DNA of 64,000 bases from a bacterium (GCA_043767845.1 JAYUFZ010000010.1:7182-71181), one strand, 5' to 3'. Positions 163-63,645 are shown, numbered from the stretch's first letter. Made by a program: numbers and translations. Notes: generated by a model from the sequence alone, not told the origin.

Positions 163-564
163 ATGAAGCGAATCTCGCTCAGGGCCCTGCCAAACCGAAT
201 CACTAGCTATGTGTTGCACCTCCGTGGGCAACGCATTTTTCGCGATAAGCTGAGCGTCGCCGTGGCGGCGCTGAGTCTTGGGCTCAATCTGCTAACCCTG
301 GTGCTTTTGATCATGCGCCTGCGTCCGACGGAGTTTCTCGTACCCATCAGGTATTCAAGCATCACCGGGTTTGACATGCTTGGATCGTGGTACGAAATAT
401 ACAGTATCGGCTTTTTCGGGCTGTTCATTACGCTAGCCAATACTTTCTTGGCGATGAAGGCCTTCAATCGGAGCCGCATTACCAGCTTTTTTCTGCTTGG
501 CTCAAGCCTGGTTGTCGGCATCCTTTGCCTCATCATTAGCTTAGCCTTCGTGGCGGTCATCTAA
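163..564 (+). CDS. Small polytopic membrane protein, first gene of the GT2 operon (TAATG overlap with the next gene)
   Basis: ORF with several hydrophobic helices; stop overlaps the start of the 564 ORF (taATGa). Confidence 0.55.
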   Translation: MKRISLRALPNRITSYVLHLRGQRIFRDKLSVAVAALSLGLNLLTLVLLIMRLRPTEFLVPIRYSSITGFDMLGSWYEIYSIGFFGLFITLANTFLAMKAFNRSRITSFFLLGSSLVVGILCLIISLAFVAVI

Positions 565-2261
565 TGACCGAGAAAACCATTAAGGCATATCAGGATTTGG
601 CCGATAAACACTGGTTCATCCGGTTGCTTGAAATTACGCCAGGCTTCATCACCTGGGCTTTTATCATGATGCCAGTCATCCTCAGCCGCTTCGAACCGGT
701 GTGGGTAGCCTACTTCATTATTGGTTTTGACCTCATCTGGTTGGCAAAATCTTTCCGCCTGAGCTACTATCTTGTTCGCGGCTACACCAAGCTCCGACGT
801 GACCAAAAGATCGACTGGCAAAAGCGTTTAGCGCAGCTTGGCAATCCAGGTGGGGCTATCGCATCGTTGCAAAGGGAGTTGAAAGAGTTGTCTTCCGAAC
901 CCGTTGCCGGTCACTGGTGGGGTTATTTTAGCCGTAAGGGCTGGCGCTGGATTGTAAAACACCGTGGGCTGGTGGCCTCTATTCGCGAGCTCGAAGACCT
1001 GGCTTACCACAAGAATGTCATTCTCGATCCCAAAGACATCATCAATGTTGTAATAATAGCAACTTATAACGAATCGTTAGAGATACTCGAGCCCTCGTTA
1101 GAATCACTTTTAACAGTTAACTACCCCTTATCTCAGCTGATGGTGGTATTCGCCTATGAAGAACGTGGGGGAGCGGCAACCGAATCGAACGTCAACTACC
1201 TGGTCGAAAAGTATGGATCGAAATTCGCTATGACTATGGCTGTTAAACATCCAGTTGATATACCCGGGGAAGCCATCGGTAAGGGCGCCAATATTAGTTT
1301 TGCAGCCCGCAAGCTTACGGCCGAGCTAGAAAAGCGTAAAATAGCACCAGAGAATGTTATAATTACAACATTTGACTCTGACCACAGACCCGATGAGCAA
1401 TACTTTGCCTACCTGAGTTACGTCTATGCCATCAATCCCAACCGCACCCATAAGTCGTACCAGCCGGTTCCTATGTTCTATAACAATATCTGGGATGTTC
1501 CAGCCCCGATGCGAGTTATAGCTACTGGTAATTCTTTCTGGGTCATCATGGAAGCTATGCGGCCGCACCGGTTGCGCAATTTTGCGGCGCACGCGCAAAG
1601 CCTTAAGACATTGATCGATACCGATTACTGGAGCATCACCTCAATAGTCGAGGATGGACACCAGTACTGGCGGACCTACTTCACCTACAACGGTGATCAT
1701 CAGGTGGTGCCACTGTTTATCCCGGTCTATCAGGACGCGGTGCTGGCAGATGGATATATTAAGACTTTTAAAGTCCAGTATTTGCAGTTGCGGCGCTGGG
1801 CTTGGGGGATATCCGACTTCCCATATGTGGTACGCCAGTCTATGAAGAATCGCCAGATCGCCTTGGGTGACAAGTTAATTCATATTTGGCGGCTGTTTGA
1901 GGGCCACTTTAGTTGGGCTACGGCGCCATTGATCCTAACTTTTGTTGCTTGGCTGCCGCTCTACCTTAACCCCCGTTTTGCTGACATGCTGCTGGCCCAT
2001 CAGCTACCGATCATCGCCAGCCGTATCCTAAACCTTGCCATGCTTGGTCTGAGCATCACAGTTATTATTAGTCTTATATCGCTTCCGCCACGGCCCAAAC
2101 GCTATGGGCGGGGGAAGATTATTGAGGTGGTTGCACAGTGGTTGCTACTGCCAATCATCGCCATTGTTTTTAGCGCCTTCACTGCTATTGACTCACAAAC
2201 CAGGCTGATGCTGGGCAAATACCTTGATTTCCGGGTGACTGATAAGGCACGTAAGCAATGA
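564..2261 (+). CDS. Processive family-2 glycosyltransferase (cellulose synthase/NodC/PgaC-like membrane beta-glycan synthase)
   Basis: N-terminal VVIIATYNESLEILEPSLESL, D-x-D-like TFDSDH and QLRRW (QxxRW processivity motif), flanked by N- and C-terminal TM helices. Confidence 0.75.
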   Translation: MTEKTIKAYQDLADKHWFIRLLEITPGFITWAFIMMPVILSRFEPVWVAYFIIGFDLIWLAKSFRLSYYLVRGYTKLRRDQKIDWQKRLAQLGNPGGAIASLQRELKELSSEPVAGHWWGYFSRKGWRWIVKHRGLVASIRELEDLAYHKNVILDPKDIINVVIIATYNESLEILEPSLESLLTVNYPLSQLMVVFAYEERGGAATESNVNYLVEKYGSKFAMTMAVKHPVDIPGEAIGKGANISFAARKLTAELEKRKIAPENVIITTFDSDHRPDEQYFAYLSYVYAINPNRTHKSYQPVPMFYNNIWDVPAPMRVIATGNSFWVIMEAMRPHRLRNFAAHAQSLKTLIDTDYWSITSIVEDGHQYWRTYFTYNGDHQVVPLFIPVYQDAVLADGYIKTFKVQYLQLRRWAWGISDFPYVVRQSMKNRQIALGDKLIHIWRLFEGHFSWATAPLILTFVAWLPLYLNPRFADMLLAHQLPIIASRILNLAMLGLSITVIISLISLPPRPKRYGRGKIIEVVAQWLLLPIIAIVFSAFTAIDSQTRLMLGKYLDFRVTDKARKQ

Positions 2262-6600: not shown

Positions 6601-7845
6601 CTACCCTAGTAATTCCTTAGCCACCTTCGGCGCATTCCCGAAACCAATTCGATCAGTTACCCGCTTGGCTGTTAGGTGGCGGGCAGGGACTATGGTATGA
6701 CGGCCATAGCGTTGCTCAATCTCATCGAGCGCTCGGCTGAGGTTATTGTTTCGCTGAGTCTCAAAAAGACTCAGCGGTTGGGCGGCTGACGGTATAAGGT
6801 CGAAAGTGATCACCGATATGAGTCGGACGGCCTTATGGAGCGGAGCGTCGCTTAGTAGCTCAGTAACTTTTTCGAACAACCCGATTGAGTCAGTAAAAAG
6901 GGCAGTCTTGCGACGAGCCTTGGACCAATAGCTGCGGTCGGAGTAGCGCAGACCAACTGCCACGCTCGAGGCCGAGAAGCCGCCCACCCGCAAGCGGGTA
7001 GCGACCTTATAGCTCAGCTGGCTAGCAATGCTCAAAATCTGTTCCTTGGAGCGGCTAGCCGGTCCGCCGAGAGTTGTCTGATGGCCAATCATACTGCGCT
7101 TTGTCGGTTTTTGGTCTACTTCATAGCCGCGCAGCCGCAAGTACCAAGCCTGTCCAGGCATGCCAAAGGCTTTGGTGAGCAGGGCATAGGGCGCATGGTA
7201 AAAATCAATCGGTCGGTAGATACCTAGGTCACCCAGCCGTCTTGCCATCCGCCAAGAAATGCCTTGCAAGTCGGTCAACTGTAAACTGCTGTAGAATTCG
7301 ATTAGTTCATCCGGTTCTGGGCGGATACTTGAAAGGCCATTAACCTTGCGCACCCGCGTACCCATTTTAGCTAGAAACATATTACTAGAAATACCAACTG
7401 AACAGTTTAGCCAGTCACCGACATCCCAGATGAGTGCCTTGATATCATGACCAACCGCCTCGGCCTTCAGCCACAGGTCCCGGGGTGCAAGCAGGAATGC
7501 TTCATCGATGCTTTTTATACTGACTTGGCAGCGGGTTTGGTCGAGTGCTTCCATTACTCGCCGATGGTAATCGCGATACAGCCCGACGTTATCGCTGACA
7601 AGAATTATTTCCGGGCATAATCGCCGGGCTTCAGGAATTGGCGTGCCAGTTTTTATGCCCAGGCGCTTAGCTTCGACTGAAGCCGCGATAATACAAGTAC
7701 TGTCATGGACAAAAGGGCAAACACCCACGGGTTTTCCACGCCACTCCGGCCGGACCTGTTGTTCGACAGACGCAAAGAAAGAATTCATATCGACAAACAG
7801 GGCCTGGCCAAAGTTTGGCTGGTGGCTGAGCATCTGCTCTAGCAT
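6601..7845 (-). CDS. dinB: Y-family DNA polymerase (DNA polymerase IV / DinB-type)
   Basis: ALFVDMNSFFASVEQ (catalytic Asp region) and SIKSIDEAFL (catalytic D-E motif); little-finger domain follows. Confidence 0.85.
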   Translation of the reverse strand: MLEQMLSHQPNFGQALFVDMNSFFASVEQQVRPEWRGKPVGVCPFVHDSTCIIAASVEAKRLGIKTGTPIPEARRLCPEIILVSDNVGLYRDYHRRVMEALDQTRCQVSIKSIDEAFLLAPRDLWLKAEAVGHDIKALIWDVGDWLNCSVGISSNMFLAKMGTRVRKVNGLSSIRPEPDELIEFYSSLQLTDLQGISWRMARRLGDLGIYRPIDFYHAPYALLTKAFGMPGQAWYLRLRGYEVDQKPTKRSMIGHQTTLGGPASRSKEQILSIASQLSYKVATRLRVGGFSASSVAVGLRYSDRSYWSKARRKTALFTDSIGLFEKVTELLSDAPLHKAVRLISVITFDLIPSAAQPLSLFETQRNNNLSRALDEIEQRYGRHTIVPARHLTAKRVTDRIGFGNAPKVAKELLG

Positions 7846-7857
7846 GATTGGCCTGTA

Positions 7858-8295
7858 CTAGCGGGCGGCAACAAGCTCGTCACTAGCTTTCGTATTCTCA
7901 CGTAGCTGCTTCTCGTTTTGCCGAGCCTTTAAATACTTGAGCAAACCCCAGCACTGCTTAATGACCGCAGTGTAATCTTCAACGAGCTTAGTAGTATCGC
8001 CATGTTTCTGGTCGGCGTGAGCAGCGAGCAGTTTCTTGGCGTGCTCGGCTTCTGCTACAGCGGATTGTAAATTATCGATCTTGAGCGTATAGCTGTAGCG
8101 CTGATGGGCCTCATAGATATAGTGCGAGACCGCTGTGCTGGCACGGTGCAGGTCGTTCGCCAAACGGTAGGCCTCCTCCTTTGGCAGCTTACTCGCTAAC
8201 TTGAGTACAGTTTTCTCGAGCTCATAGGCGAGTGTGTAAACTCGCAGGTTTTGTATTGATGATTCGGCCATTGTAAATCCTCCCTTATGTGTCAC
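7858..8295 (-). CDS. Four-helix-bundle protein (23S rRNA-intervening-sequence-protein-like family), immediately upstream of dinB
   Basis: LRVYTLAYELEKTVLKLASKLPKEEAYRLANDLHRASTAVSHYIYEA fits the KEE..Y.L..QL.RAS.S...NI.EG four-helix-bundle pattern; low-confidence family call. Confidence 0.45.
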   Translation of the reverse strand: MTHKGGFTMAESSIQNLRVYTLAYELEKTVLKLASKLPKEEAYRLANDLHRASTAVSHYIYEAHQRYSYTLKIDNLQSAVAEAEHAKKLLAAHADQKHGDTTKLVEDYTAVIKQCWGLLKYLKARQNEKQLRENTKASDELVAAR

Positions 8296-8396
8296 CTGGG
8301 CTCCAACGCGCCCAGGCTTTAAATAGTGTCACCTCACCTCGCAATCACTATAAACGAACATAAACCGAACAGTCAAGACAAAAAATAATAAAGTTG

Positions 8397-8749: not shown

Positions 8750-9967
8750 TCAAGCGGCTTCCTGGTAGAACATGAGGCCGAGTTTTATTTGTAGTGCGTC
8801 TTCAAAGTGGCGCGGATCAAGGTTGATAAGCTTCTTTGTCTTATCAAGTCGATAGATGAGCGTGTTTCGATGAACATGGAGTTGTTCGGCGGCATTGGTA
8901 AGGTTAAGATTGTGATTCAAAAAAGTTTGAACCGTCTTAAATAGTTGTTGATTTCGCAACAAAGGACTCAGGATTTGATGAGCCAACTCGGCCTTGCGCT
9001 CGGCGGCAACGTTAGCAAGAGTAATAAACATGCCCACATCCTTTATATGATGAGTCTTACCAGTGCCCCATACTTTTATGCCTACATTAAGGGCTAATTT
9101 GGCATCCATATAGCTTTTTCGTAAGCCACCGAGGTCAGGATAATACTGGCCAACACCCAAAGTTACATTTTTGTGATGTAATTTAGTCAACGTAGAGTGT
9201 ATATATTCAGCCTTTTCACGCAAGAAACGAATAGTATTCATCGTGTTAATGTCATCACCTCCAATACCCTTTAAAACGACGAAGACATCGCTGCCAAAGT
9301 AGGCAATAATATTGTCTTGATAGTTGCGGAAGCTTTGCCGGAAGCTTATGGCAATATCTTCGGCGGCTTTGCTGAGGGCGAGTTGCTGTTCTTCGCTCGA
9401 TATATCGGACAGTTGTTTTTTAATATCAGCCTCGAAATCCTGGAGGTGGAGGAGGAGTACGGCTTGGGGTAAGCGCAGGTTGAGCTTGAGGATATCGGCT
9501 TGCCGATAGGCCTCGGCGGAACTCAGTTCGCCGGACTGTAGAAGCTGTTTGATAAACTGCGCCCTGAGCACCTCGCTGGAGTGCAAGCTATCAAGCACCG
9601 TGTACTGGTGCACGATAACTTCGGCTAGTCCCTGTAGTAGGCTAATACCCTCAGGGGTAATCTGGCCATCCTCGAGCGATATTCCGAAAGCGCCGATGGT
9701 TGAAGCTTCGTAGACGAAAGGGCACCAGGTGAGGCTGATGCTGTCATGGTGGCTCGTAAAGAGCTGGCCCTGCTGGATAGCTCTGAGGGCTTGAGGTATA
9801 ACCTGGTCTGGGGCAATTGATTCCTGGCCTACCACCACCAGCCCATTCTCGTCGGCAATCAGTATTCGTCTGCCTAGAATGGCATCAGTCTTGGCGGCTA
9901 TCTGGAGGGCAAGCTCTTTATTGATGCGCATAAGCTCCCTCGATAAACTTTGTGAATAGGATAGCAA
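8750..9967 (-). CDS. CdaR/PucR-family transcriptional regulator (sugar-diacid-regulator-like), paralog 2
   Basis: C-terminal PucR HTH HVHRNTLIYRLDKTKKLINLDPRHFEDALQIKLGLMF; N-terminal putative diacid-recognition region; 50-nt frame overlap with the upstream paralog. Confidence 0.75.
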   Translation of the reverse strand: MLSYSQSLSRELMRINKELALQIAAKTDAILGRRILIADENGLVVVGQESIAPDQVIPQALRAIQQGQLFTSHHDSISLTWCPFVYEASTIGAFGISLEDGQITPEGISLLQGLAEVIVHQYTVLDSLHSSEVLRAQFIKQLLQSGELSSAEAYRQADILKLNLRLPQAVLLLHLQDFEADIKKQLSDISSEEQQLALSKAAEDIAISFRQSFRNYQDNIIAYFGSDVFVVLKGIGGDDINTMNTIRFLREKAEYIHSTLTKLHHKNVTLGVGQYYPDLGGLRKSYMDAKLALNVGIKVWGTGKTHHIKDVGMFITLANVAAERKAELAHQILSPLLRNQQLFKTVQTFLNHNLNLTNAAEQLHVHRNTLIYRLDKTKKLINLDPRHFEDALQIKLGLMFYQEAA

Positions 9968-11051
9968 GTTTTATCTGCACGGCGTCATCAAAGACTCGCG
10001 GATCAAGGCCCAGTGTCTCGTGGATCCGGTCCAGCCGATAGACGAGTGTGTTGCGATGTAGACCTAGAATATCGGCGGTAGTAGTCAGACTCATATCGTG
10101 TTCAAAGAAAACTTCTAAGGTTTGTATAATCTCGCTGTTTTCGCCCAGCTTTTCTAAGAGCTCACGACTAAAGTAAATATTCTTTTCATCAATACCAGAG
10201 AGTAGGGGAGCCACAACGCCGAAGTCGTCGATATGGTAGACTCGATCCTCGTGCCAAACCTGTTCTCCAAGCTCAATAGCCGAGCAGGCTTCCTCGAAAC
10301 TTTGCTTAATTCCGGAGATATCGTTGTGAAAATTACCTATGCCAACTGTGGTTGGCAACTTAATCTCTGACTTAAGAATCTCATATATTGTGTGGATTGA
10401 TTTCTTGAAACTCTCGAGGTTTTCTTGGAGGTTTGCGCTTTCACTCTGCAGGTCTTTTAGGATGCAAAAGCGATTTTCTCCAATGTAGACGACGATATTA
10501 TCACGGCTTGAGGTGTAATAGGAGTGCAGTGCGCGTGAGATACCGGCCTTATAGCGGCTGATACGAGTGTCGCGGTCGTTCGATGGCGCCCGAAAGCTGG
10601 TTGTGAGCAAGGGATCTTCGATGGCGATTACGATAGCTATGCGCGGGCGCTCCAGCTCCAGGTTAAAAGCCTGCGCTTGCGAGACTAGGGTGGGTAGGCT
10701 CTCCGGCGTATGGTGGAGTAGGTCGTAGACGTATTTGTCGAGCCGCTCTTCTTGCTTTGGTATCTGATCGATGAGTATAGACTGATGCATGACTAATTCG
10801 GCAATCGACTTGATAAGCGGCGCTATGCTTTCGTGGTTCGGAAGTTCTTGGTTGAGCGAAACATATCCAACAACCTCGCCTTGATAGTTAAAGGGGACTG
10901 CCCATTTCAGTTCGCCCACATTGAGCTTGCCCTGGAGCGTACTCTGCTCGGAGGCCAGAATATTCCCATCGCTGTCCAGAACACTTATCGGGAAGCTCAC
11001 AAGACTAGCGACCTTAAGAGCAATCTTGGCGGCGATTTGGGAATTCATCAT
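9918..11051 (-). CDS. CdaR/PucR-family transcriptional regulator, paralog 1
   Basis: C-terminal GLHRNTLVYRLDRIHETLGLDPRVFDDAVQIKLAILF; same three-part architecture as the neighbouring paralog. Confidence 0.75.
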   Translation of the reverse strand: MMNSQIAAKIALKVASLVSFPISVLDSDGNILASEQSTLQGKLNVGELKWAVPFNYQGEVVGYVSLNQELPNHESIAPLIKSIAELVMHQSILIDQIPKQEERLDKYVYDLLHHTPESLPTLVSQAQAFNLELERPRIAIVIAIEDPLLTTSFRAPSNDRDTRISRYKAGISRALHSYYTSSRDNIVVYIGENRFCILKDLQSESANLQENLESFKKSIHTIYEILKSEIKLPTTVGIGNFHNDISGIKQSFEEACSAIELGEQVWHEDRVYHIDDFGVVAPLLSGIDEKNIYFSRELLEKLGENSEIIQTLEVFFEHDMSLTTTADILGLHRNTLVYRLDRIHETLGLDPRVFDDAVQIKLAILFTKFIEGAYAHQ

Positions 11052-48459: not shown

Positions 48460-48848
48460 GGGGCTGACATAGCTTTGACGTGGGTACCTTTACAACCTAA
48501 CTGGCAAGTCGTAGGCATGCGTTAAATCCAACTTTTTCAAATGACAATTCATTTGTATCGCGCGTGAAGTCGCTGTTCGCAGTTCCTTCATTCGCACCAG
48601 CTCTAGCCTAATCGCTTAAGCCATCGGCCTCCTGACGTCAAATGGGGAATCGGCCGGTGTTATATCATTTGACTGCTGTACAACTGAGATAGGCGTTGTA
48701 TTTAAGACTACAATCTGCTCTGTCCGCACATTTCGTTTGCTTCGAGTGCGGGTAGCTAAGAGGGCTCGTCCCACATAAGTAAACTACGCTTGTAGAAGGT
48801 TAGGGAGTAAACTCGCGGACTCGGGTGCGATTCCCGACAGCTCCACCA
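48460..48848 (+). ncRNA. ssrA: tmRNA (transfer-messenger RNA)
   Basis: 5' GGGGCUGACAUAGCUUUGACGUGGG (acceptor/D-like, compare E. coli GGGGCUGAUUCUGGAUUCGACGGG); 3' CGGACUCGGGUGCGAUUCCCGACAGCUCCACCA (T-arm + acceptor + CCA); internal tag frame ...GCA GUU CCU UCA UUC GCA CCA GCU CUA GCC UAA (48579-48611). Confidence 0.9.
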
Positions 48849-52420: not shown

Positions 52421-53503
52421 TTAGAGCATTCGCCGCTGCTCGGAAGGTGGTCGGGACCTTGGGCGCAGAACAAGCAGCTGGCCCTTGCGGGTATAGTAGG
52501 CGTTGGGTATGTCGACGTTGCAAAAATCCTCCACGGGGCAGAGGGCGCAGGTATTGGCATGGGTTCGGAGTTCAGCCTTGGTCCAGGCTGGGTTATAAGG
52601 CGTTAGATCGGTAAAACGCGCTTTGTAGCCGCGTGTTCCACGTGTTCCATCCTCCAGACCTACTAAGCTGATGTTACCGGGGTGACGACTACAAAGTTGG
52701 TTTGAGGGCAGCCAGATGACATTGGTAAGGATGATGGGGCTAATGTTATGCCTGGCAGCATAGTCTTCGTAGAGTCGTCGCAGCCGGGCTAGCAATTCCT
52801 GACTATAAACATCACGATTGTCTGGAATATCTCGAAAATTAACCATGCCGGTCGCTATCGAAACACGCAATACATGGAAATCGACAGGAACTGGAAAATT
52901 GAAACTTTTCACTAATCCGGCTTCCATGTAGTAATAGCTCAGCATGCTGGCCATTTTCTCCCTGAAGCCAAAGAAGCCTTGGCGGCGGGTGAATTCGGCC
53001 GAGCCTTTCTTGCGCTTGCTTTCATTACAGAGACGTAGACAGATAGCTTCGAAGCTATCTACCTGATCATAGATGTTACGTGGGTCTCCGTCGTACCATT
53101 CGTTGAGTCGCTTGGCATTCTCTATCCAAAAGGCAGGTATTATCCGCGAGAGGTATGCGAGCCCAGCGCGACGCAGCATGTGCTCGACGGAAACTTCGTC
53201 AAGTAGTGCAGCCTGGCGGCTGTCAAACAATTGTGGACAGCGAATATAAAGGATGCTGAGTCTTTGGGCCGCCACTACGCTCTGGATACCGCCACGCATG
53301 TAGTAGCATAGACAGAAGAGCCACATGGCATGCTGCCCAGGGTTATCAGTAAGCCCGTGCGGCAGGTGTTTGGCGTCCTGGGGTAATACCGCGCCGGGCA
53401 GATTGTAGGGGAACTCGCCATTCTGGTAGGTACTGAGTAGCCTGTCGAGCACCAGCACGACACGCTTTTTGTCTACGGTCGTAATCATAGGTCTCCATGT
53501 CAA
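52421..53503 (-). CDS. Hypothetical protein with a C-terminal Cys cluster (CALCPVEDFC)
   Basis: 360-aa ORF; no family recognised. Confidence 0.4.
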   Translation of the reverse strand: MTWRPMITTVDKKRVVLVLDRLLSTYQNGEFPYNLPGAVLPQDAKHLPHGLTDNPGQHAMWLFCLCYYMRGGIQSVVAAQRLSILYIRCPQLFDSRQAALLDEVSVEHMLRRAGLAYLSRIIPAFWIENAKRLNEWYDGDPRNIYDQVDSFEAICLRLCNESKRKKGSAEFTRRQGFFGFREKMASMLSYYYMEAGLVKSFNFPVPVDFHVLRVSIATGMVNFRDIPDNRDVYSQELLARLRRLYEDYAARHNISPIILTNVIWLPSNQLCSRHPGNISLVGLEDGTRGTRGYKARFTDLTPYNPAWTKAELRTHANTCALCPVEDFCNVDIPNAYYTRKGQLLVLRPRSRPPSEQRRML

Positions 53504-53687
53504 TATGCAAGCTTAGTAGAATGATACCTATGCTTTCGGACAAGTTCAATCTGTACAAATACCACTATCAGATATGTAGCTATCATGATTAGGTTTAAAA
53601 AGTGATTATAGTAGCAAATAATACAACGATAAGTACAAATATTAAGCATAATTTGTTTAAAATCAGATTACGTCATACACTAGGAGC

Positions 53688-54386
53688 ATGCGACGTTTAG
53701 CAATAATCTCGGTTTCAAGTAGCTTATTGGTTGTAGGCTTGAGCGCTGGTTTCTATGCCTATAAAACTCGTTCCTTTGGAGGTGGTAGCTCGAGCCAGAC
53801 ACCAGCTGGCAGTGTCGCCTTCAATTCAGACAGTAGTGAGCAGCTGTCGAAGCCTATATCACTTGATCCATCTACCAGCAACGCCGGCCCAAGTCCAACG
53901 CCAGATACTGGGGGTCTGAAAGTTACGACGAATAGCGGCAATACGAGTGCGGGTCAAGCCATGGTTGGTGGCGGCAATTCAAGCGATTCCAGCTCGCCGG
54001 CACCAGCCGTCTACCGAGAGCCGACGTTGAGCGAGCTCGCAAGCTACGCTCAGTATAAGGACGGGCAGCAAGCTCTCTTCGGTGAACTCATCGTCGGCAC
54101 AGGCAGCCAGGCAGTTATGAATAAGCGTGTGGCAGTCTACTACAAGGGCTGGCTTACCGACGGTACTGTTTTTGACCAGTCCAGGGTAGGTACGCCGTTT
54201 GTTTTTGCGCCTGGTGAGCATAAGGTTATTGCTGGCTGGGAGTCAGATATCCTGGGTATGAAAGTTGGTGGCAAGAGAAGGTTCATTATTCCAAGTGTCG
54301 TAGGTTATGGGAGTCAGGCAACGGGAAAGATACCAGCTAACTCCTTACTCATCTTTGATGTAGAGTTGCTCGAAGTTGAAAAATAA
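53688..54386 (+). CDS. FKBP-type peptidyl-prolyl cis-trans isomerase, membrane-anchored with a Ser/Gly/Thr-rich linker
   Basis: C-terminal VAVYYKGWLTDGTVFDQSRVGTPFVFAPGEHKVIAGWESDILGMKVGGKRRFIIPSVVGYG...LLIFDVELLEV. Confidence 0.85.
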   Translation: MRRLAIISVSSSLLVVGLSAGFYAYKTRSFGGGSSSQTPAGSVAFNSDSSEQLSKPISLDPSTSNAGPSPTPDTGGLKVTTNSGNTSAGQAMVGGGNSSDSSSPAPAVYREPTLSELASYAQYKDGQQALFGELIVGTGSQAVMNKRVAVYYKGWLTDGTVFDQSRVGTPFVFAPGEHKVIAGWESDILGMKVGGKRRFIIPSVVGYGSQATGKIPANSLLIFDVELLEVEK

Positions 54387-54576
54387 GTTTGCAAGCCAGG
54401 AGGATAGATCTGAGCTGCCATGCAAAAGTAAGCTTGGCTATGACAGTGAGTCGGCTGTGCGCGCAGCTGTCAGCTACGCTGTCTGGCAGTATGGAGGCAA
54501 GGGGAGTGATTATCAGGTCTACGTTTGCAGACACTGTAGCCGCTTCCATATAGCTCGCAACACTGAGTTGGAGTGA
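54376..54576 (+). CDS. Small hypothetical zinc-ribbon-like protein (C..CRHC)
   Basis: 66-aa ORF overlapping the FKBP stop by 11 nt. Confidence 0.3.
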   Translation: MKNKFASQEDRSELPCKSKLGYDSESAVRAAVSYAVWQYGGKGSDYQVYVCRHCSRFHIARNTELE

Positions 54577-54588
54577 TCTGCTGTAATC

Positions 54589-56049
54589 TTAGTCGAAAGC
54601 CTCGGCAGCAAATAGTTGGCTCAACTCTATTTTTGATAGTACTTTGATCTGGATACCTTTAACTCTCGTGCTGATAAAACGGCGAACAATTTTATACATG
54701 TCCAAATCAAAGACTTTATCGATTTTTTGGATAGTGGGTTGATCTGTGAGTTCATCCTCGAGCTTAGCCACAAGCTGCCAGTTGTCGAAGATGTAGCCGC
54801 TGGTACGCTCTAAGTCGCTACTTCTTTCAACAACCAGCACAGGGCCGGAAAATGGCCAATTGCTGAGCCTAGTTGCCGCAAAAGCTTGGCCCAAGCGAAG
54901 ATTATGAGGCTCGGCTGCTTCGCTTTGATCACAGGCGCCAAGGCAATTGGATAGCTGTCTGGCGAAACAACTGCCTCGGGATTTGTCTAGGCCAACTAGT
55001 TTAGGGCAGAGTTGGTAATCTTTGGCTAACTTCTGGATGGCCTCCTTATATTCCCGTCGATTCTTGAAGATCGCCAGTACTTCCTGGGGGTCTATATCTG
55101 TTAAATTACTATCGTCGACAATTTCACAACCCAAGTAATCATGAATATTAGTTGTAGATTTTACAACGATAAGATCCTTTTTACGTCGTAATTGGCGATT
55201 GTGAAGTGGTAAGCGAGACTTTATAAGCTCTGATTCCAAAAGAAGGGCACTCAGCTCGCCGGTAGTAGCAATACCTTCAATGTGGCGGACCTGAGACGAT
55301 AAGCGTAGCTCGCGCTAGTCGCGGTGATCATCGCTGAAGTGTGATAATACGCGGCTATAGACATTAACACTCTTACCTATGTAGAGCGGTTGACCGTCCT
55401 CGTCTTCGTATATGTAAACACCAGGCCCATGAGGCAAGTTCCCGACGGCCTCGGCCGGTAGGTTCGGTGGCAGGCTTTGGCTGGCCAGCTGTTGCTTAAG
55501 GGCAGACTCGACTGTATCGATATCGAATTCGCCTAATACCAGGCGGTAGAAGTCCCACAATACTTTGGCATCGTCATAAGCCCGATGCCTGGCGGTAGTT
55601 GTAAAGCCATGACGCTCGATAAGCTTACCCAAACTGTGGCCTTTGACGTCAGGGTATAACGCTCTAGAAAGGCGAACAGTACAAAGCAACTTGGGGTTAA
55701 TATCCTGTCCCAGCCGTTTGTATTCTTGCTTGATAAACGAGTAGTCGAAGCGAACATTGTGGGCCACAAAAAAAGCCCCCTCGAGGACCTCACGAAGCTG
55801 GTCGGCAATGTCTTCAAAGCTGGGCGCGCCAGTCAGCATCGCATTGTCGATACCGGTCAACTCAGTGATAAAGCTTGGAATATGTTCTCGTACAGAAAGC
55901 AGCGTTTTGAAGGTGGATACTACCTGGCCATCCTCGACGCGTAAGACGCCAACCTCAAGGACACGGCCAAAGTGATAATTGGCGCCTGTGGTTTCAATAT
56001 CCACGAAAGCCATTGGCTGGTTGTAGAGGCTGTTTGTTGACTGAGGCAT
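54589..56049 (-). pseudogene. Cho-like nuclease gene (DnaQ-type 3'-5' exonuclease + GIY-YIG/UvrC-N-like domain) interrupted by a single in-frame TAG at 55315-55317
   Basis: N-terminal FVDIETTG...FFVAHNVRFDYSFI (DEDDh exonuclease); GIY-YIG GVYIYEDEDGQPLYIGKSVNVYSRVLSHF -[TAG]- ...LLESELIKSRLPLHNRQ continues in the same frame; downstream UvrC-like Cys region CFARQLSNCLGAC. Confidence 0.7.
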
Positions 56050-56096
56050 AAGCTTATTATAACGCTAAGCCAGACCGAATACATCCCGAAAATTGA

Positions 56097-57674
56097 TTAT
56101 TTGCCCTCCACGACGCGGTAGACTTCGATGGTGGTGGTTATCCCAGCCAAGGCCTTAACTAGCCCACCTTGCAACAGGCTGATCATGCCTTCTTTCTCGG
56201 CCAGTTCCTGGACGGCGTGGCTGGTGGACATAGCAATGCCGCCCGATATGAGGCTTTCCATAGCCGGGGTCATGGGTAGCTGCTCTACGATTGCCACCCG
56301 GCCTTTGTAGCCATAGCCATTGCAACTCTCGCAGCCTTTACCGCGGTATAAGGTTATTTTTTCAGTCGGCTTATAGAGTTCTGCTGGGAGGTTTTTGAGC
56401 TCGGCCTTAATCTCTTTTGCCTCATCAATAGTCGGTTCATAGCTTTCTTTGCAGTCCTCGCAGATTTTGCGAACCAGGCGCTGAGCCTGGATGAGTCGGA
56501 CAGCAGAGGCCATAATCGGGTTTTGGCCGATCATGTCCATGAGGCGGGCGATGGCGGCCACAGCCGAGCTAGCATGGAAGGTCGAGAGTACGAGGTGGCC
56601 GGTGAGGGCGGCTTGCAAGGCGGTTTTAGCTGTATCGACATCGCGGATTTCACCAATCATGACAATGTTGGGGTCCTGGCGGACAACGGCCCGCAGCTTC
56701 TCAGCGAACAATTCGTTCTTATCGCTACGCACAGGAATTTGGCTGGTGTCGGGTAAGTCGTACTCTACTGGGTCTTCCAGGGTGACGATTTTGATTTCCG
56801 GGGAGTTAGCCTTGTTGATCATGGAGTAGAGCATAGAGGTTTTACCAGAGCCAGTGGGGCCGACGGCTAGCACCATGCCGTGCGGGCGAGCAATAATGTC
56901 GTCGATGGCCACGCGCTGGGGCGATGTCAGCTGCATATTATCTAGATTAAGGTAGGTAATATCCATGCTGAGCAGGCGGACAATCAGCTCCTCGCCATGC
57001 ATTGTCGGAATAGTTTCTAGACGCATATTGATGTTAGTCTTTTTTCTGTCAGTGGCTACAAGCTCGATACTGATACGTCCACCCTGGGGCATATCCGAGC
57101 CCCACTTCATGCCAGCCATGTTCTGAAGTCCAGAAAGAATCAACTGATACTTTTCGTTGGCTAAGTTGGCTATGGGGTGGAGGGTGCCATCGATACGGAA
57201 GCGGATGCGGGCTTCCTTGGCTTTGGGTTCGATATGGATGTCTGAGGCGTCGAGCTGGTAGGCGAGCTGGCTAATAAGCCGGAAAGCATCGTCTTTGTGG
57301 GCGGTCAGTAGGCGATCGGCAAAGGCCTTATAGCCGTTACCAGTGGCCATTTCCAAACTAGAAACGTCGATCTTGGAGAATAGCTCATCGAAGCCGGACT
57401 CAGTAATGACGTAGAAATTGCAGGTTTTGCCTGGGAACTTTTGGGTAAAGAGAGCAAGGCGCGACCTATCGGTCTTGTCGGTGTAGCCGAAGTCGATACG
57501 GCCGGGGGCAATGGCCAGGGGGATGATATGAAAAGTGGCGATGTCGCTATTGCTCGATATACCGGAGATAGCCGTTATATCGTTGATAAGCCGAGTGTCG
57601 ACGTAGTAGGTCTTATTTGACTCTGCCCAGGCCTGCGCCTTCTTTTCTTCGTCTTGTCTGGCCTGAGTATTCAT
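56097..57674 (-). CDS. pilB: Type IV pilus assembly ATPase PilB (GspE family)
   Basis: Walker A VGPTGSGKTSMLYSMIN; GspE signature; C-terminal CxxC...CxxC; start placed at MNTQAR (57674) because the longer ORF would run into the upstream terminator. Confidence 0.85.
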   Translation of the reverse strand: MNTQARQDEEKKAQAWAESNKTYYVDTRLINDITAISGISSNSDIATFHIIPLAIAPGRIDFGYTDKTDRSRLALFTQKFPGKTCNFYVITESGFDELFSKIDVSSLEMATGNGYKAFADRLLTAHKDDAFRLISQLAYQLDASDIHIEPKAKEARIRFRIDGTLHPIANLANEKYQLILSGLQNMAGMKWGSDMPQGGRISIELVATDRKKTNINMRLETIPTMHGEELIVRLLSMDITYLNLDNMQLTSPQRVAIDDIIARPHGMVLAVGPTGSGKTSMLYSMINKANSPEIKIVTLEDPVEYDLPDTSQIPVRSDKNELFAEKLRAVVRQDPNIVMIGEIRDVDTAKTALQAALTGHLVLSTFHASSAVAAIARLMDMIGQNPIMASAVRLIQAQRLVRKICEDCKESYEPTIDEAKEIKAELKNLPAELYKPTEKITLYRGKGCESCNGYGYKGRVAIVEQLPMTPAMESLISGGIAMSTSHAVQELAEKEGMISLLQGGLVKALAGITTTIEVYRVVEGK

Positions 57675-57734
57675 ACAACTACTATAGCATGAGCAGTATG
57701 CCAACCAAAGCCTGCTGGGCCTGTTGCGCAACTA

Positions 57735-57790: not shown

Positions 57791-58639
57791 CTAGTTGGAG
57801 ACTGAGACACCTGAGCTAGTACCATTGTTGTTTCCAGCGTTGCCAGTTGTTGCTGAGCCAGCGTTGGTGTTGCCTGAGACATTTGCGTTACCGCTGACAG
57901 CAGACTGGCTGTTGACGTTGGTGACACCAACTTCGTTCACGTTTTGTGCGAAGAAGTTGTTGTTGTTCGAGACGTTGACCTGGTTGGTCGAGCTTGGGCC
58001 AGTCGTGCCGACGCTGATTGTCGAATCGGCTGGATTGGCGATTGGGGCTACAAGTCCGCTACCGTTTGCGACGTTGACTGATGTGTTGGTAGTATTGTTG
58101 TTGCCGGCTGCGCCAGTTGTTGCTGAACCACCGTTGGTGTTGCCTGAGACATTTGCCGAACCGCTAGCTGCCTGTTGCTCGCTTTGGTTCTGGACTTGAA
58201 CTTGGTTCAAGTTCTGTGTAAACCAGTTGCTGTTTGAGCTAACGCCAACTTGGTTGATAGAGCTTGGGCCGGTTGTCCCAAGGTTGACGACAGTCATGCC
58301 GCCAGCTAGTGGTAATACTAACGCTCCGCCAGAGTTGCTGATCCCAACACCTGTGTTGGTTGAGTTGTTGTTGTTTGCTGCGCCGGTTGTAGCTGAACCA
58401 CCATTGGTGTTACCTGAAACATTACTCCAGCCGCTACCAGCTAGTTGGCCATTGAAATTAACGATTCCAACACCATTTGAATTAGACTTGGTCCAGTTCT
58501 GCGTTCCTGATACCCACACTTGATTAAGCGATCCCGGACCGGTCGTACCGACATTTATGACAGCTGCCGAGGCGCTACCAAGGCCGAGACCTATGGTTGC
58601 TACGGTCAGTGCTGCATAGCGAAGTAAAGACTTCTTCAT
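57791..58639 (-). CDS. Secreted Gly/Asn/Thr/Ser-rich protein with three roughly 90-aa tandem repeats (Sec signal MKKSLLRYAALTVATIGLGLGSASA)
   Basis: Repeats VGTTGP(S/G)S.NQV.VS...NVSGNTNGGSATTG.AGNNN.TNT; start at the ATG 58639 (ORF track starts at TTG 58675). Confidence 0.65.
   Translation of the reverse strand: MKKSLLRYAALTVATIGLGLGSASAAVINVGTTGPGSLNQVWVSGTQNWTKSNSNGVGIVNFNGQLAGSGWSNVSGNTNGGSATTGAANNNNSTNTGVGISNSGGALVLPLAGGMTVVNLGTTGPSSINQVGVSSNSNWFTQNLNQVQVQNQSEQQAASGSANVSGNTNGGSATTGAAGNNNTTNTSVNVANGSGLVAPIANPADSTISVGTTGPSSTNQVNVSNNNNFFAQNVNEVGVTNVNSQSAVSGNANVSGNTNAGSATTGNAGNNNGTSSGVSVSN
57840..58620. repeat. Three tandem DNA repeats of about 270 bp inside the CDS
   Basis: gttgctga(g/a)cca(g/c)cgttggtgttgcctgagacatttgc recurs at about 57841, 58123 and 58385. 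Confidence 0.7.
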
Positions 58640-59450
58640 TGCACCCTCCAAACTATATTTATTATTGTTCCTCAATGTCTATTCTACTATACATAAGCGC
58701 ATACCTGTCAATAACCTGTTATGTTTTTCTGTGCATAATTTGGTGTTCAGTGCCTTTTGGGGCTTTTGCGAAGCCTCTTTTTGACATAAAGTTTATTGTT
58801 GGTCAAATTGGTTTGATTTGGTAATAAATGAACATGGTCGGCCATTATATAGTAGGATCTTTTATTTGACGCGTGGGCCTCGAGGTTTTGCTTGAGCGAC
58901 TCAACTCCCTTCCATTCTCATTTCAGCCTGACGACTAGTCCGTGAGTTACTCTATAGTTCTCAATGCTTGCCAATACAGCACAGCTTCGGCTCAGGCAGC
59001 TACGAACCGGGGGAGGGGACGGCGCGTAGCTTATGCCGCTAGTGGTAGGGAAGGTATAGACGGGCCACGTAGATGGTGTTTGGGGTGCTCTGGTGGTTGC
59101 TCATAGTATGTTGCGCAGCAATGTTGAGAAGCGCCAGTGTGGGTCTGTGTGGCACGTCCTACTGGCCACCAAGGACCTATGACTGCTGCAGATCTATAAC
59201 TTGCTGGGCCATCTCGACATGGGATGGGAACCGGTAGGGCAGTCATACACCTATTATTCTTATGCTCCAGATGGTGATAATCCCGGAATCAAAATAACGG
59301 CCTTGTTAAGCCGTTATTTTGAGTGGAAAGGTTGTTTTTTTGTTTTGAGCACTTAATTTACTCAGTGCTAATATACACTTTAAAGCATTAGAAATACGGG
59401 TGTCAACACAATTTTTAGAATAGTGCTTATGCTACTCTGTTGGCAAAATT

Positions 59451-59891
59451 TTAACGGGCAAAGCGGCGGGCGATATCGCGGGTAACTTCACGCTCTTTAA
59501 TACTAGCCCGTTTATCAAAACGCTTTTTGCCGCGGCCAATGCCGAGTTCTACTTTGACCAAATTGCGGCCAAGTAAAACTGCCAATGGGATGACTGATAG
59601 GCCGGCTTGCTTATCGCCAGTCAGCCGGTCGATTTCTTTGCGCTTCATTAATAACTTGCGACTGCGGGTGGGGTTGGGTTGCGACTCTTTGGTAGCATAG
59701 GCGTAGTCGGTGACGTGGGCATTAGTTAAAAAGGCCTCGCCACCACGGAAGGCCACAAAGCTGCCCTTGAGGCTAATGTGCCCGGCCTTGATGCTTTTGA
59801 CCTCAGCACCGGTTAATTCCAATCCGGATACCAGCTTCTCGGTAATGTCGTAATCGAAGCGGCCACGCTTGTTGCTAGCTAATACTTTCAT
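59451..59891 (-). CDS. smpB: SsrA-binding protein SmpB
   Basis: MKVLASNKRGRFDYDITEKLVSGLELTGAEVKSIKAGHISLKGSFV; start at the internal Met (ORF track 59990). Confidence 0.85.
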   Translation of the reverse strand: MKVLASNKRGRFDYDITEKLVSGLELTGAEVKSIKAGHISLKGSFVAFRGGEAFLTNAHVTDYAYATKESQPNPTRSRKLLMKRKEIDRLTGDKQAGLSVIPLAVLLGRNLVKVELGIGRGKKRFDKRASIKEREVTRDIARRFAR

Positions 59892-59961
59892 AGAGCTATT
59901 ATACAGCCTCCCGTCGTTCAGGTATAATGAGGCTAATATATAGGTATCGAAAGTAGCTACT

Positions 59962-61572
59962 ATGAAATTGGTCGAATTACAGATGATCATCGAGAGCGCC
60001 GCCCTGGCAGCCTTTGATTTGCCCGAGATACCTGCCTTTGAGGCCAGCTACGTAAACAGTGAATTTGGAGACTTCAGCACCAATATCAGCTTTAAGTTGG
60101 CGGGATTATTAAAAATGTCGCCAAAGCAGATAGCGCAGAAGCTTGTCCATGAGTTAAGCGATGAGCGTCTGAGCAAGGTCGAGGTGGCGGGGGCTGGCTA
60201 TATTAATATGACAGCTAGCGACCAGGTCTGGAAAGACCTGCTCAAGTCCGTGAACAAAGACTTTGGTTCCAGTAAGTACGGGGCCGGTCAGAAGGTCCAG
60301 GTAGAGTTCATATCCGCCAACCCGACCGGTCCGACTACCTTTGGCAATGCCCGTGGTGGCTTTATTGGCGACACAGTTGCCAGGGTATTGCGCAGCCAGG
60401 GCTACGATGTGACGAGCGAATACTATTTCAATGATGCCGGCACTCAGATCTCAAAGCTAGTCGAGTCGGTCAAGGTTGCTGCCGGGCTGATAGAGGCTGA
60501 AGATGTGCAGTATAAGGGACAATATATCGAAGAATTAGCAGAGGAATTCAAGGCTGAGCTCAAAGACGCGACTGACCAGCAAGCGGCCACTATCCTAACG
60601 ACAGCGATCGTCAAGCGCTATATAGAGCCAGCAATCGGGAAAATGAACGTTCATTTTGATATTTGGTTTAACGAAAAAAGTCTTGGGCCAGATGGCAAGG
60701 TAAAGGCTGCTTTTGCGGCACTCGAGGCAAAAGACCTTATATATGAGTCGGATGGTGCTCAGTGGCTAGCTTCCAGCAAGCTTGGCGATGAGCGTGACCG
60801 GGTGTTGGTAAAATCGAGCGGCGATCTGACATATCTGGCCAATGATATCGCTTACCACCTTGATATCTTTACTGGCCGTGGTTTTGACCGTGCTATCAAA
60901 GACTGGGGCGCAGATCACGTCGGCCAGGTGCCGTCTTTGTCGCTTGTTATGAAGGCTTTGGTCCCGGATGCGGAACTCGACTTTATTCTTCACCAGTGGG
61001 TCAGACTCATGAAGGACGGCCATGAAGTTAAGATGAGTAAGCGGGCTGGCAGCTATGTGACTGTTGAGGAAGTGGTAGATATAGTCGGGAGCGACGTGGC
61101 CCGGTTCTTCTTTCTGATGCGCAGTGCCGATAGCCAGCTTGACTTCGACCTAGGCTTAGCCGAGGAGCAATCCCAGAATAACCCACTCTACTATGTAATG
61201 TATGCCTACGTTCGGGCCAAATCGATACTCGGGAAGGCTAAGCTAGCCGGGCTGCAGCCTTTGGTTGGTGAGTCGCTAGCGCTTGGGCATGAGCAAAGGG
61301 AAGTTGTTAAACTGATGGCCCGCTGGCCGGAGCTGCTGGGCGAACTGTCAAACAGTTATACTGTTCACAAGTTGACTCATTATGGCATTGAAGTAGCTAC
61401 GGCCTTCCAGAAGTATTATGAGGCTGGCCAAATCTTAACCTTGCCAAAGGCCGAAGCCTCAAATCAACTCTACTTCCTAGTAAAGTATTGTGAATTTATG
61501 GACAGCTATTGGTCGGTCTTGGGTATCCAGCCGCAGGAAAAGATGATTCGCGAGCAGCCCTTAGAAAGTTAG
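59962..61572 (+). CDS. argS: Arginyl-tRNA synthetase
   Basis: SANPTGPTTFGNARGG (HIGH-region equivalent), KMSKRAG (KMSKS), DALR-type C-terminal domain; -10 TATAAT at 59923-59928. Confidence 0.9.
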   Translation: MKLVELQMIIESAALAAFDLPEIPAFEASYVNSEFGDFSTNISFKLAGLLKMSPKQIAQKLVHELSDERLSKVEVAGAGYINMTASDQVWKDLLKSVNKDFGSSKYGAGQKVQVEFISANPTGPTTFGNARGGFIGDTVARVLRSQGYDVTSEYYFNDAGTQISKLVESVKVAAGLIEAEDVQYKGQYIEELAEEFKAELKDATDQQAATILTTAIVKRYIEPAIGKMNVHFDIWFNEKSLGPDGKVKAAFAALEAKDLIYESDGAQWLASSKLGDERDRVLVKSSGDLTYLANDIAYHLDIFTGRGFDRAIKDWGADHVGQVPSLSLVMKALVPDAELDFILHQWVRLMKDGHEVKMSKRAGSYVTVEEVVDIVGSDVARFFFLMRSADSQLDFDLGLAEEQSQNNPLYYVMYAYVRAKSILGKAKLAGLQPLVGESLALGHEQREVVKLMARWPELLGELSNSYTVHKLTHYGIEVATAFQKYYEAGQILTLPKAEASNQLYFLVKYCEFMDSYWSVLGIQPQEKMIREQPLES

Positions 61573-63645
61573 AGCGGCCTTGTAGAGCTTGCCGTCGGCT
61601 AGAATATAGAGCAGGCTATTTTTCGAGTCGGGTGCGGTATCGAGAACTGTTTGCAGGCCGTCGAATTGGTACTGCTTTTTATATACCAAAGCATCGTTCT
61701 CTAAGCTCAGCAACCCAACCCGCCCAGTAGTTTGGTCTGTCATTAAGAATAGGCTGCCGTCGGCAAAGGACCGCATACTCGATGGGTGAGTTATCTCGGA
61801 TGGTAGCTGGCTATTACTCTGTTTAAGTATGCCAGCAACATAGCGCCGTAGCCCATCTGATCCGCTGGCGATAATCGCTCCATCAACGGCAATGGCTGTC
61901 GTGCCCTTCAGGCTATCAAGTTCGGCTGTGCCTAGGTAATTTGATCGGCCATTGAAGCCGCTCAGCGTTCGTCCGAACTTATAGATTTGGCTGCTATCAT
62001 CGGCTAGTAGGTAGAGATTACTATTGTAGCTGGCAATCGAGCGGCCTTTTGGCCAATCACCCAGTGCTAGGAATTGCTCGGTCAGGCTGTCGTCTTCGAA
62101 GCGATAGAACCACAGGCTTGGCTTGCTGGTGAGCAGGAAAAGACCATCACCGAGACCCGAGGTGGTCATCGAAACGACTGGTGGGATGGCTTTATTGCCA
62201 GCACCTGCCTTGAGCTTACCGGCTGCTAGATCATAGATATAGATGCTTGTCGCGCGATTATCATAAAAGTAGGCTTTGCCAGCAACCAATTCAAAATAAT
62301 TCGGTGCCGCGCCGGTCAGCGCGCTGAAATTGGTTACCAGGGTTGTCTTGGATTTCGTAAGGCCATCGACTAGGTCGATCTTGCTATCAATGAGCGCGGC
62401 GAGGCCAGCTAGGGAAGCTGGATCGTATTCGGCATGGCTTGATTTTTTTAGGAGCAGATCGAGTTTTGGAGCGAGTGGCTCACCCCGCAGGGTAGTAATC
62501 TGCTGCTTGGCAACCTTCAAGGTTTTGCGGGCGCCAACCTGGTCATTATGAGTCATCTGCTTTTCGGCCTGTTGCTCACTCTCCAGGGTAGTAAGATAGC
62601 GGGACTTGAGCCGGTTGAGGCTCTGGGTTTGTAAGCGCATATAATTCAAGTAGAAGACTCCGAGGATGATTGTGAAGGCGCCTATTAAAAGGTATTTGTG
62701 GTGCTTGCGATTGCCAAGCCAGCCTCGTAGTGAGCTGACTATCTTGATGAGTCCTCGCTTGAGCAGGGGTAGTACACGGTCTTTGAAGAAGCGGCCAAAA
62801 CGGACCAATAGTCGGCCGGTAAACCCGGCAGCGGCTTCTGCGGCTGGGGCGGCGGCAATTTTGGCGGCTTCCAGTGGGCTTGATGGGGCTCCAAGTTCAA
62901 CCTCATTACTCTCAGTCGAAAGGGTGTGAAGCGAAGCGAGCTCGGGGGTGGTCACCTCTACAACTAACATCGCGACCCGCTCGGCTTGGTTACTGCCGCT
63001 AAGCCGCTCATGGATCTTGTGGATTGCGCCGTTTGGTGAGCTATCGTGTACGTAGTTCTTTAGTTCGGCTACCGAAAGGTGGTGCAGCAAGGCCGGAGTG
63101 GCAAATACCAGCTTATCTGAGGCCTGGAGTTGGCCATTGGCAATACTTGGGAAGGTCTGGTCTGAACTCTTCTCGCTGGCCGAGGGGCTATGGCTTAATC
63201 GTGTCGTCCGGCTTGCTCGGTAGAGATTAATTTCAACCGACCCTGCCTGGCTAATCTGCAATTCACCCTCACAGATAACAGCTATGACGGCGCTCAATTT
63301 CCCGACCCAACTCGAGTGCCCGCTGGCTAAATACTTGGTCAGTTGGGTGTTGACTGCCTTGATAGCTGCTTCAAAGCGTTGGAGATGAGCAGGCTCCTTG
63401 CTATCTGTGGGGGTCGGAAGTGCCTGGTTGTAGTAGCTATGGCCGGCAGTTTGGATGATGAGGTCGCTAACTTCATGGGCCTGCTTGGAAGTGCCGAGTA
63501 CCTCGAGTACCACAAAGAGCGATCCAAAGTTCTGATCGCCTATGACTTCTGGCTCAAACATGAAAGCGGTAGCAATGCCAGAAAGTGCCTTGGGACGCTT
63601 ACTGTAGGGCACCAACTTTGCTACGCGCGTGATAAGCTCTGACAC
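61561..63645 (-). CDS. Large single-pass membrane protein; the N-terminal cytoplasmic domain has weak PP2C-like features and the C-terminal extracytoplasmic domain is uncharacterised
   Basis: TM HHKYLLIGAFTIILGVFYLNYM; N-terminal ISQAGSVEINLYR / ERVAMLVVEV reminiscent of PP2C motifs 8/11, but no clear metal-binding Asp/Gly motifs. Confidence 0.4.
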   Translation of the reverse strand: MSELITRVAKLVPYSKRPKALSGIATAFMFEPEVIGDQNFGSLFVVLEVLGTSKQAHEVSDLIIQTAGHSYYNQALPTPTDSKEPAHLQRFEAAIKAVNTQLTKYLASGHSSWVGKLSAVIAVICEGELQISQAGSVEINLYRASRTTRLSHSPSASEKSSDQTFPSIANGQLQASDKLVFATPALLHHLSVAELKNYVHDSSPNGAIHKIHERLSGSNQAERVAMLVVEVTTPELASLHTLSTESNEVELGAPSSPLEAAKIAAAPAAEAAAGFTGRLLVRFGRFFKDRVLPLLKRGLIKIVSSLRGWLGNRKHHKYLLIGAFTIILGVFYLNYMRLQTQSLNRLKSRYLTTLESEQQAEKQMTHNDQVGARKTLKVAKQQITTLRGEPLAPKLDLLLKKSSHAEYDPASLAGLAALIDSKIDLVDGLTKSKTTLVTNFSALTGAAPNYFELVAGKAYFYDNRATSIYIYDLAAGKLKAGAGNKAIPPVVSMTTSGLGDGLFLLTSKPSLWFYRFEDDSLTEQFLALGDWPKGRSIASYNSNLYLLADDSSQIYKFGRTLSGFNGRSNYLGTAELDSLKGTTAIAVDGAIIASGSDGLRRYVAGILKQSNSQLPSEITHPSSMRSFADGSLFLMTDQTTGRVGLLSLENDALVYKKQYQFDGLQTVLDTAPDSKNSLLYILADGKLYKAALTF

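Follow-up and report, generated by a model that had tools for sequence, protein, structure and literature searches.

An in-frame amber codon in a Cho+Exo-type nuclease gene of a Saccharimonadia lineage: probably a recent nonsense mutation

Layout of the interrupted gene

The stretch of DNA that was analysed (hereafter, the window) comprises 64,000 nucleotides of a bacterial contig (GCA_043767845.1, JAYUFZ010000010.1:7182-71181), about 90% of which is covered by ORFs. Its minus strand carries a gene divided by one amber codon into two ORFs of the same frame, the features of which are listed below, with positions counted from the first letter of the window and residues numbered as in the read-through product.

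56056..56061, minus strand: TATAAT, a perfect hexamer, separated by 6 nt from the ATG at 56049
54589..56049, minus strand: the disrupted Cho+Exo gene in full, with 486 codon positions (internal TAG counted) and the terminal TAA; homologues align with it end to end
55315..56049, minus strand: 5' ORF, with its ATG at 56049, 244 sense codons and the TAG at 55317..55315
56013, minus strand: second in-frame ATG (Met13), the start used by the Logan gene call
55558..56007, minus strand: DEDDh (DnaQ/RNase T-type) 3'-5' exonuclease domain, aa 15-164 (Pfam PF00929, E 7.6e-32)
55177..55452, minus strand: GIY-YIG nuclease domain, aa 200-291, broken at codon 245
55315..55317, minus strand: in-frame amber TAG, codon 245 (plus-strand bases C-T-A)
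54589..55314, minus strand: 3' remainder, 241 sense codons (55314..54592) and a TAA at 54591..54589
55237..55239, minus strand: TTG, the ORF-finder start of the second ORF, within the conserved LLESELIK helix of the GIY-YIG domain
54931..55008, minus strand: four-Cys motif C348-x12-C361-x3-Q365-x3-C369-x3-C373, which fits the UvrC/Cho consensus
54592..54912, minus strand: Cho-type C-terminal domain, about aa 380-486

An earlier note on this DNA had described two ORFs in one frame with a single amber codon between them, and reconstruction of the frame (244 codons, TAG, 241 codons, TAA) gave the same picture: 56049..55315 and 55314..54589 on the minus strand form a single continuous reading frame. 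The read-through product has 486 aa, the approximate length given in that note, and the peptides quoted in it, those on either side of the stop (...VYSRVLSHFSDDHRD*RELRLSSQVRHIEGIATTGELSALLLESELIKSRLPLHNRQ...) and that of the downstream Cys region (CFARQLSNCLGAC), are both present as written. The 5' ORF contains the whole DEDDh exonuclease, the linker after it and the N-terminal half of the GIY-YIG domain, the other half of which follows, with the Cys motif and the Cho C-terminal domain, in the 3' remainder without a further stop or frameshift. As had also been pointed out, the second ORF starts only at an ORF-finder TTG (55239); no GGAGG-like sequence was seen by eye upstream of it, and this TTG is not a credible independent start. 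The Logan gene caller splits the gene into two pieces of 232 and 216 aa, and an exact look-up of the 244-aa ORF gave no match because this public gene call begins at the second ATG.

Upstream of the gene, no Shine-Dalgarno sequence was seen by eye before the ATG at 56049, and the promoter scan reported no full promoter because a good -35 element is absent. The position of the TATAAT hexamer so close to this ATG, taken together with the lack of a Shine-Dalgarno sequence, suggests that the Cho+Exo transcript may be leaderless.

The gene adjoining the Cho+Exo gene is that of a type IV pilus/T2SS ATPase (56097-57731). Partial synteny was observed between positions 39000-63700 of the window and JBBRNT010000003.1, the contig with the closest relative of the gene (see below), and includes SmpB, ArgRS, a protein of about 690 aa without a Pfam match, a ComM/Mg-chelatase-like protein, GalT, MGDG synthase and a GH42-like protein; the gene list of that contig contains no T2SSE-family match on the genes flanking Cho+Exo. 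At the thresholds used, Pfam gave no match for several long ORFs of the window (294-694 aa), namely 564-2261 (+), 29148-31435 (-), 61561-63645 (-), 52421-53503 (-) and 57791-58675 (-), and the 694-aa ORF among them corresponds in position and length to the 690-aa domain-less gene of the related MAG.

Additionally, a tmRNA gene was reported by Rfam (48460-48848, plus strand, RF00023, 90.5 bits) and missed by ARAGORN, with SmpB about 10 kb off (59451-59990, minus strand), and a full-length bacterial class A RNase P RNA (239 bits) was located at 32605-33022 (plus strand) in an apparent intergenic gap. Two tandem paralogous regulators of the PucR/CdaR type (Diacid_rec + GGDEF_2 + HTH_30) occupy 8750-9967 and 9918-11051 on the minus strand and overlap by 50 nt. 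A second DNA-damage-tolerance gene of the window encodes a translesion polymerase of the DinB/Pol IV type (6601-7845, minus strand) and lies directly downstream of, and in frame with, an ORF for a "23S rRNA-intervening sequence protein" (7861-8328, minus strand), these being separate genes with a TAG between them.

Domains and active-site residues

The exonuclease residues D17, E19, D102, H155 and D160 are all present and fall in family-invariant columns, and the PDB matches of this domain are the DinG exonuclease, the PolC exonuclease and Pol III epsilon. The GIY-YIG motif had been described as continuous through the TAG, and this was also seen with profile models, since a single Pfam GIY-YIG match (aa 210-280) runs across codon 245, as does the match to the NCBIfam "excinuclease Cho" model NF007833, in which aa 200-464 align with model positions 26-281 of 289 (E 1.2e-54).

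Alignment to the solved structures of the UvrC N-terminal domain (1YD6 and 1YCZ) relates Y212, Y223, K226, R233 and H237, before the stop, to Y19, Y29, K32, R39 and Y43 of Thermotoga maritima UvrC, and E272 and N284, after it, to E76 and N88, with codon 245 at about E49. The roles of these residues we take to be those reported in the UvrC N-domain study behind 1YD6 and 1YCZ, the E76 equivalent being the metal-binding Glu. The catalytic Tyr, Tyr, Lys, Arg, Glu and Asn of the UvrC/Cho-type GIY-YIG domain are all present on read-through, and the stop divides them 4 + 2. The TAG falls between the Tyr/Tyr/Lys/Arg half and the Glu/Asn half, so that neither piece of the gene can act as a GIY-YIG nuclease.

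In the alignment of homologues, the columns of C348, C369 and C373 are invariant and that of C361 is at least 90% conserved. The consensus of UvrC and Cho, CX6-14CX3(H/Q)X3CX3C, is the iron-sulfur cluster site in UvrC (PMC10085695), and the fit of C348-C373 to it agrees with the UvrC-like Cys region that had been noticed downstream of the stop. For the 216-aa 3' piece, as found in the public collection, Pfam gives PF27115 Cho_C (weak) and PF27096 UvrC_M.

Homologues and the ancestral codon

A protein search over 5.8 billion sequences gave 2,740 matches at E <= 1e-10, the best 120 of which are all single proteins of 469-513 aa (~480 aa), with E values down to 1e-168; those with a named source organism are from Saccharibacteria/Saccharimonadia/Patescibacteria. 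The continuity of the read-through frame with these full-length proteins goes well beyond chance. The closest relative, 55% identical, comes from the Candidatus Saccharimonadia MAG JBBRNT010000003.1 (hereafter, the sister), and no closer one was found in this search, in a GTDB genome scan or in a metagenome contig scan. In public sources the homologues are mostly labelled "DNA polymerase III subunit epsilon" or "polC", which is a systematic mis-annotation because the proteins carry GIY-YIG/Cho modules.

Comparison with orthologues had been proposed as a check, and orthologues split in the same way had been named as the observation that would argue for two genuine genes. None of the 30 best orthologous DNA loci, genomic and metagenomic, has an internal stop, none of the 120 listed homologues is split, and the sister has the sense codon TAC at this site. 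In alignments of 25 and of 121 sequences, every family-invariant residue of the gene is kept on both sides of the stop. The column at codon 245 is variable among the 120 homologues (S 35, G 34, V 14, T 13, E 9, Y 7), and therefore no special residue is needed there.

Around this column the sister reads GAC GAC CAT CGC CAG TAC CGC GAG and the window GAT GAT CAC CGC GAC TAG CGC GAG, the Tyr codon TAC of the sister being one base from TAG in the otherwise conserved ...HR-x-Y-RELRL... context. The most parsimonious origin of the TAG would be a third-position substitution from a Tyr codon, TAC or TAT, and if the ancestor had TAC, the change would most parsimoniously be G to C at plus-strand position 55315; the ancestral codon is here deduced from the sister rather than observed, because the nearest relative is just 55% identical.

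Second assembly and the use of TAG in the window

The same locus was found in Logan, a second, k-mer-based assembly, in which contig SRR23617225_1381758 (2,665 bp) is 100% identical to positions 53607-56271 of the window, TAG included; three more Logan contigs, about 12.5 kb in total, match the window without a mismatch. Exact look-ups of neighbouring proteins place the organism on public record in one run only, SRR23617225, and for this reason the two assemblies probably share reads; a literature search for this run gave no result. About 50 other genes of the window were checked, and none is interrupted. Three overlapping ORF pairs considered as possible frameshift splits proved to be complete separate genes, and this explanation was rejected for them; the genes checked beyond the same-frame and overlapping pairs likewise show complete domain matches. 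With about 50 other genes intact and no frameshift-like splits, the assembly is therefore not noisy. As the base was reproduced by a second assembler and no other gene is broken, an assembly error is unlikely as the source of the TAG.

Among 49 other long ORFs of the window, 24 end with TAG, 17 with TAA and 8 with TGA, which makes TAG the commonest stop (25 of 50 when the TAG of the 5' ORF is counted), and several of these TAG stops come directly after complete domain matches. The statement of the earlier note that TAG serves as a genuine terminator elsewhere in the window is thus upheld, and so is its argument against global reassignment. The possibility of window-wide in-frame TAG codons was rejected, since all five other same-frame ORF pairs with a TAG between them are unrelated, distinct and complete genes; by Pfam, they are ThrRS/HAD hydrolase, MiaA/MurT, MraY and an ORF with no match, DinB/23S-rRNA-IVS protein, and an ABC ATPase and an ORF with no match. 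The tetranucleotide CTAG is not depleted in the window (249 observed vs 249 expected).

The tRNAs of the window, from ARAGORN and Rfam, are Val-GAC, Pro-GGG, Pro-CGG and Gly-CCC, the anticodon of the last being read by eye, and none of the four is a suppressor with a CUA anticodon. The Gly-CCC tRNA lies at the window's edge (1-71, minus strand), was matched by Rfam and missed by ARAGORN, and has the anticodon loop TTCCCAA, so that it is no suppressor. No match to pyrrolysine genes was obtained among the window ORFs scanned against Pfam. The RNA around the TAG folds no better than shuffled sequence (z = 0.24). The base following codon 245 (+4) is C, as it is after 8 of the 24 genuine TAG stops; in E. 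coli termination studies, C after the stop is the weakest 3' context. The hallmarks of programmed readthrough were looked for and not seen, in that there is no stop at this site in the orthologues (30 loci), no stimulatory structure and no unusual context.

Age of the lesion

When identity downstream of the stop (C-terminal) is divided by identity upstream of it (N-terminal), the window's protein has the lowest value among 121 sequences. As a sign of decay of the 3' part this raw ratio was rejected, since the same lineage effect is seen in the sister, which is intact, and since the two tests that follow show no excess. At columns conserved to at least 90%, the window has violations at 7 of 94 upstream and 7 of 53 downstream, against 9 of 94 and 8 of 52 in the intact sister. 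Relative-rate counts with the sister, and with the consensus of the other 119 sequences as the outgroup, were 25:32 upstream and 30:27 downstream, neither being significant. Excess divergence 3' of the stop was therefore not detected by the conserved-site or the relative-rate test, for which a sister at 55% identity gives little dating power.

From the 241 codons after the TAG, a stop can be reached by 31.3 one-step routes, and the fact that no second stop has appeared limits neutral divergence since the event to less than about 0.10 substitutions per site (95%, indels ignored). The lesion would then be recent, or unfixed, or the 3' half would still be translated, three cases that a sister at 55% identity cannot separate. 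What is seen is the picture of a young nonsense pseudogene, namely a single lesion against intact orthologues and no other decay.

Origin and meaning of the amber codon

It is probable, in our judgement, that the TAG is a genuine and recent Tyr-to-amber nonsense mutation in one Cho+Exo gene, which would make this gene a young pseudogene or a segregating null allele. A single nonsense substitution at codon 245 would stop translation at the TAG and give a protein of 244 aa (or 232 aa) with its exonuclease domain whole and the Cho-type 3' incision lost; the 3' half would remain untranslated, as a very young pseudogene remnant, or the TAG allele may be segregating in the sampled population. In the mechanism proposed for the intact relatives, UvrB would hold the lesion, the GIY-YIG domain would make a nick on its 3' side, and from this nick the exonuclease part of the fusion would digest the damaged strand; UvrB-dependent 3' incision with exonucleolytic resection has been proposed for the fusion proteins (PMC1564403).

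The earlier note had left the choice between recent pseudogenisation, a sequencing or assembly error and stop-codon readthrough, and pseudogenisation is favoured among these by the intact orthologues, the TAC of the sister and the occurrence of the TAG in a second assembly, error and readthrough being less favoured. An artefact of sequencing or consensus calling, or a minority allele fixed by the assembler, would mean that the organism has a sense codon (e.g. TAC) and an intact Cho+Exo gene. This is unlikely: a single substitution is the smallest possible error, it would leave the downstream frame and all invariant residues perfectly kept, as they are, and both assemblies probably come from the same reads of the one run on record, but the k-mer-based assembly gives the same base in a 2,665-bp contig of 100% identity, its three further contigs do not differ from the window over about 12.5 kb, and no frameshift or stop interrupts any other of about 50 genes. 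There is little chance that functional readthrough, by near-cognate decoding or a suppressor tRNA, supplies some full-length nuclease and keeps the 3' half under selection. The 3' half without a second lesion or detectable relaxation of constraint would suit such readthrough, which would likewise leave an intact downstream frame, and the C after the stop would suit it as well, but the same base follows a third of the genuine TAG stops (8 of 24), TAG is the most used terminator of the window, the RNA at the site has no stable or unusual structure, none of the four tRNAs carries a CUA anticodon, no second gene of the window is interrupted by TAG, none of the 30 orthologous loci is stopped at this site, and the variable column calls for no special residue. 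A particular form of decoding, for which the chance is very small, is that the amber is partly read by a near-cognate Tyr or Gln tRNA or by an unseen suppressor, yielding mostly the 244-aa exonuclease and a little, possibly stress-tuned, full-length nuclease; if this were true, a Saccharibacterium would provide a natural example of isoform control through readthrough, and the pristine 3' half would be accounted for.

It is extremely improbable that the locus holds two real genes, one for an exonuclease on its own and one for a protein with the Cys motif and the Cho C-terminal domain, whose products act apart or reassemble. The 5' product does have a complete exonuclease domain, and the Logan gene caller also lists two genes, but the break lies within the GIY-YIG fold and between its catalytic residues, the second ORF would start at a TTG in a conserved helix with no visible ribosome-binding site, and the gene is split in 0 of 30 orthologous loci and 0 of 120 listed homologues. 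For a change of the genetic code or pyrrolysine incorporation, with UAG read as an amino acid in this organism, the probability is close to nil; the in-frame TAG itself is all that speaks for it, and against it stand the 24 of 49 other long ORFs that end at TAG, several of them directly after complete domains, the lack of a pyrrolysine gene among the Pfam-scanned window ORFs and the ordinary, variable residues found at this site in homologues.

The appropriate annotation is a single Cho+Exo pseudogene, or Cho+Exo gene with an internal stop, and not a "DNA polymerase III epsilon subunit" followed by a hypothetical protein. Should the mutation be real and fixed, a Saccharimonadia lineage would have just lost an accessory excision-repair nuclease for which all related Saccharibacteria/Patescibacteria sequences examined have one intact gene, and this would be a small case of ongoing gene loss in a reduced genome. 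To our knowledge, the Cho+Exo family is biochemically uncharacterised in the Saccharibacteria phylum.

Comparison with known systems

By homology, the read-through protein belongs to the "Cho+Exo" subfamily of UvrC-like GIY-YIG nucleases, as a disrupted copy. The architecture of this subfamily, which consists of an N-terminal ExoIII domain, a GIY-YIG domain, a C4 motif and a Cho C-terminal domain, was initially reported from a few Betaproteobacteria (Dunin-Horkawicz et al. 2006, PMC1564403). The same four modules are found in the present gene, the match to the Cho model spans nearly its whole length, and identity with loci from Burkholderiales and Bordetella is 36-38% over query residues 1-477. 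Unlike the other members, the present copy has a TAG at codon 245, so that its frame is interrupted, and it comes from a Saccharimonadia lineage without a relative above 55% identity.

E. coli Cho (YdjQ) resembles this protein in its GIY-YIG domain, Cys-rich motif and Cho C-terminal domain, whereas it is without an N-terminal exonuclease domain. In nucleotide excision repair it is the second endonuclease that makes the 3' incision (Moolenaar et al. 2002, as cited in PMC10085695 and PMC1564403), and UvrB-dependent 3' incision is presumably the function of the intact relatives as well. The score against NF007833, the equivalog model of E. coli-type Cho, is 185.4 bits vs a cut-off of 367, which marks the present protein as homologous and not as an equivalog.

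The earlier note had compared the gene with the mycobacterial Rv2191-type fusions; the fusion of a Cho-like GIY-YIG nuclease with an exonuclease was confirmed by Pfam and NCBIfam, but the Rv2191 type was not, since the C-terminus is Cho-type and not UvrB-binding. What the mycobacterial proteins (NCBIfam PRK07883) have in common with it is the DEDD exonuclease, followed by GIY-YIG and the Cys motif, and their models give its best NCBIfam matches, over aa ~11-380 with 244 bits. In the actinobacterial "Cho-like+Exo" proteins (Rv2191), a UvrB-binding domain follows the Cys motif in place of the Cho C-terminal domain (PMC1564403), and these mycobacterial proteins are about 560-640 aa long, with a region of the UvrB-binding type after the Cys motif. 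The best PRK07883 model, NF005906, is matched at positions 6-383 of 563 (244 bits vs a cut-off of 495), and the other models are likewise matched in part, with scores far under their equivalog cut-offs. "Cho-like+Exo" identity was ruled out because the Cho model is matched up to position 281 of 289, whereas the PRK07883 matches end at about position 383-402 of 563-584. The abundant Saccharibacteria proteins are of the Cho+Exo type, with the Cho C-terminal domain, and not of the mycobacterial type.

Ordinary single-nonsense pseudogenes likewise have one internal stop where the orthologues are intact, with the rest of the gene and its neighbours undamaged, and nothing distinguishes the present case from them except that it is very young and carries no second lesion. 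With this locus a known family gains a further, disrupted member, and the phenomenon, a nonsense pseudogene, is an ordinary one.
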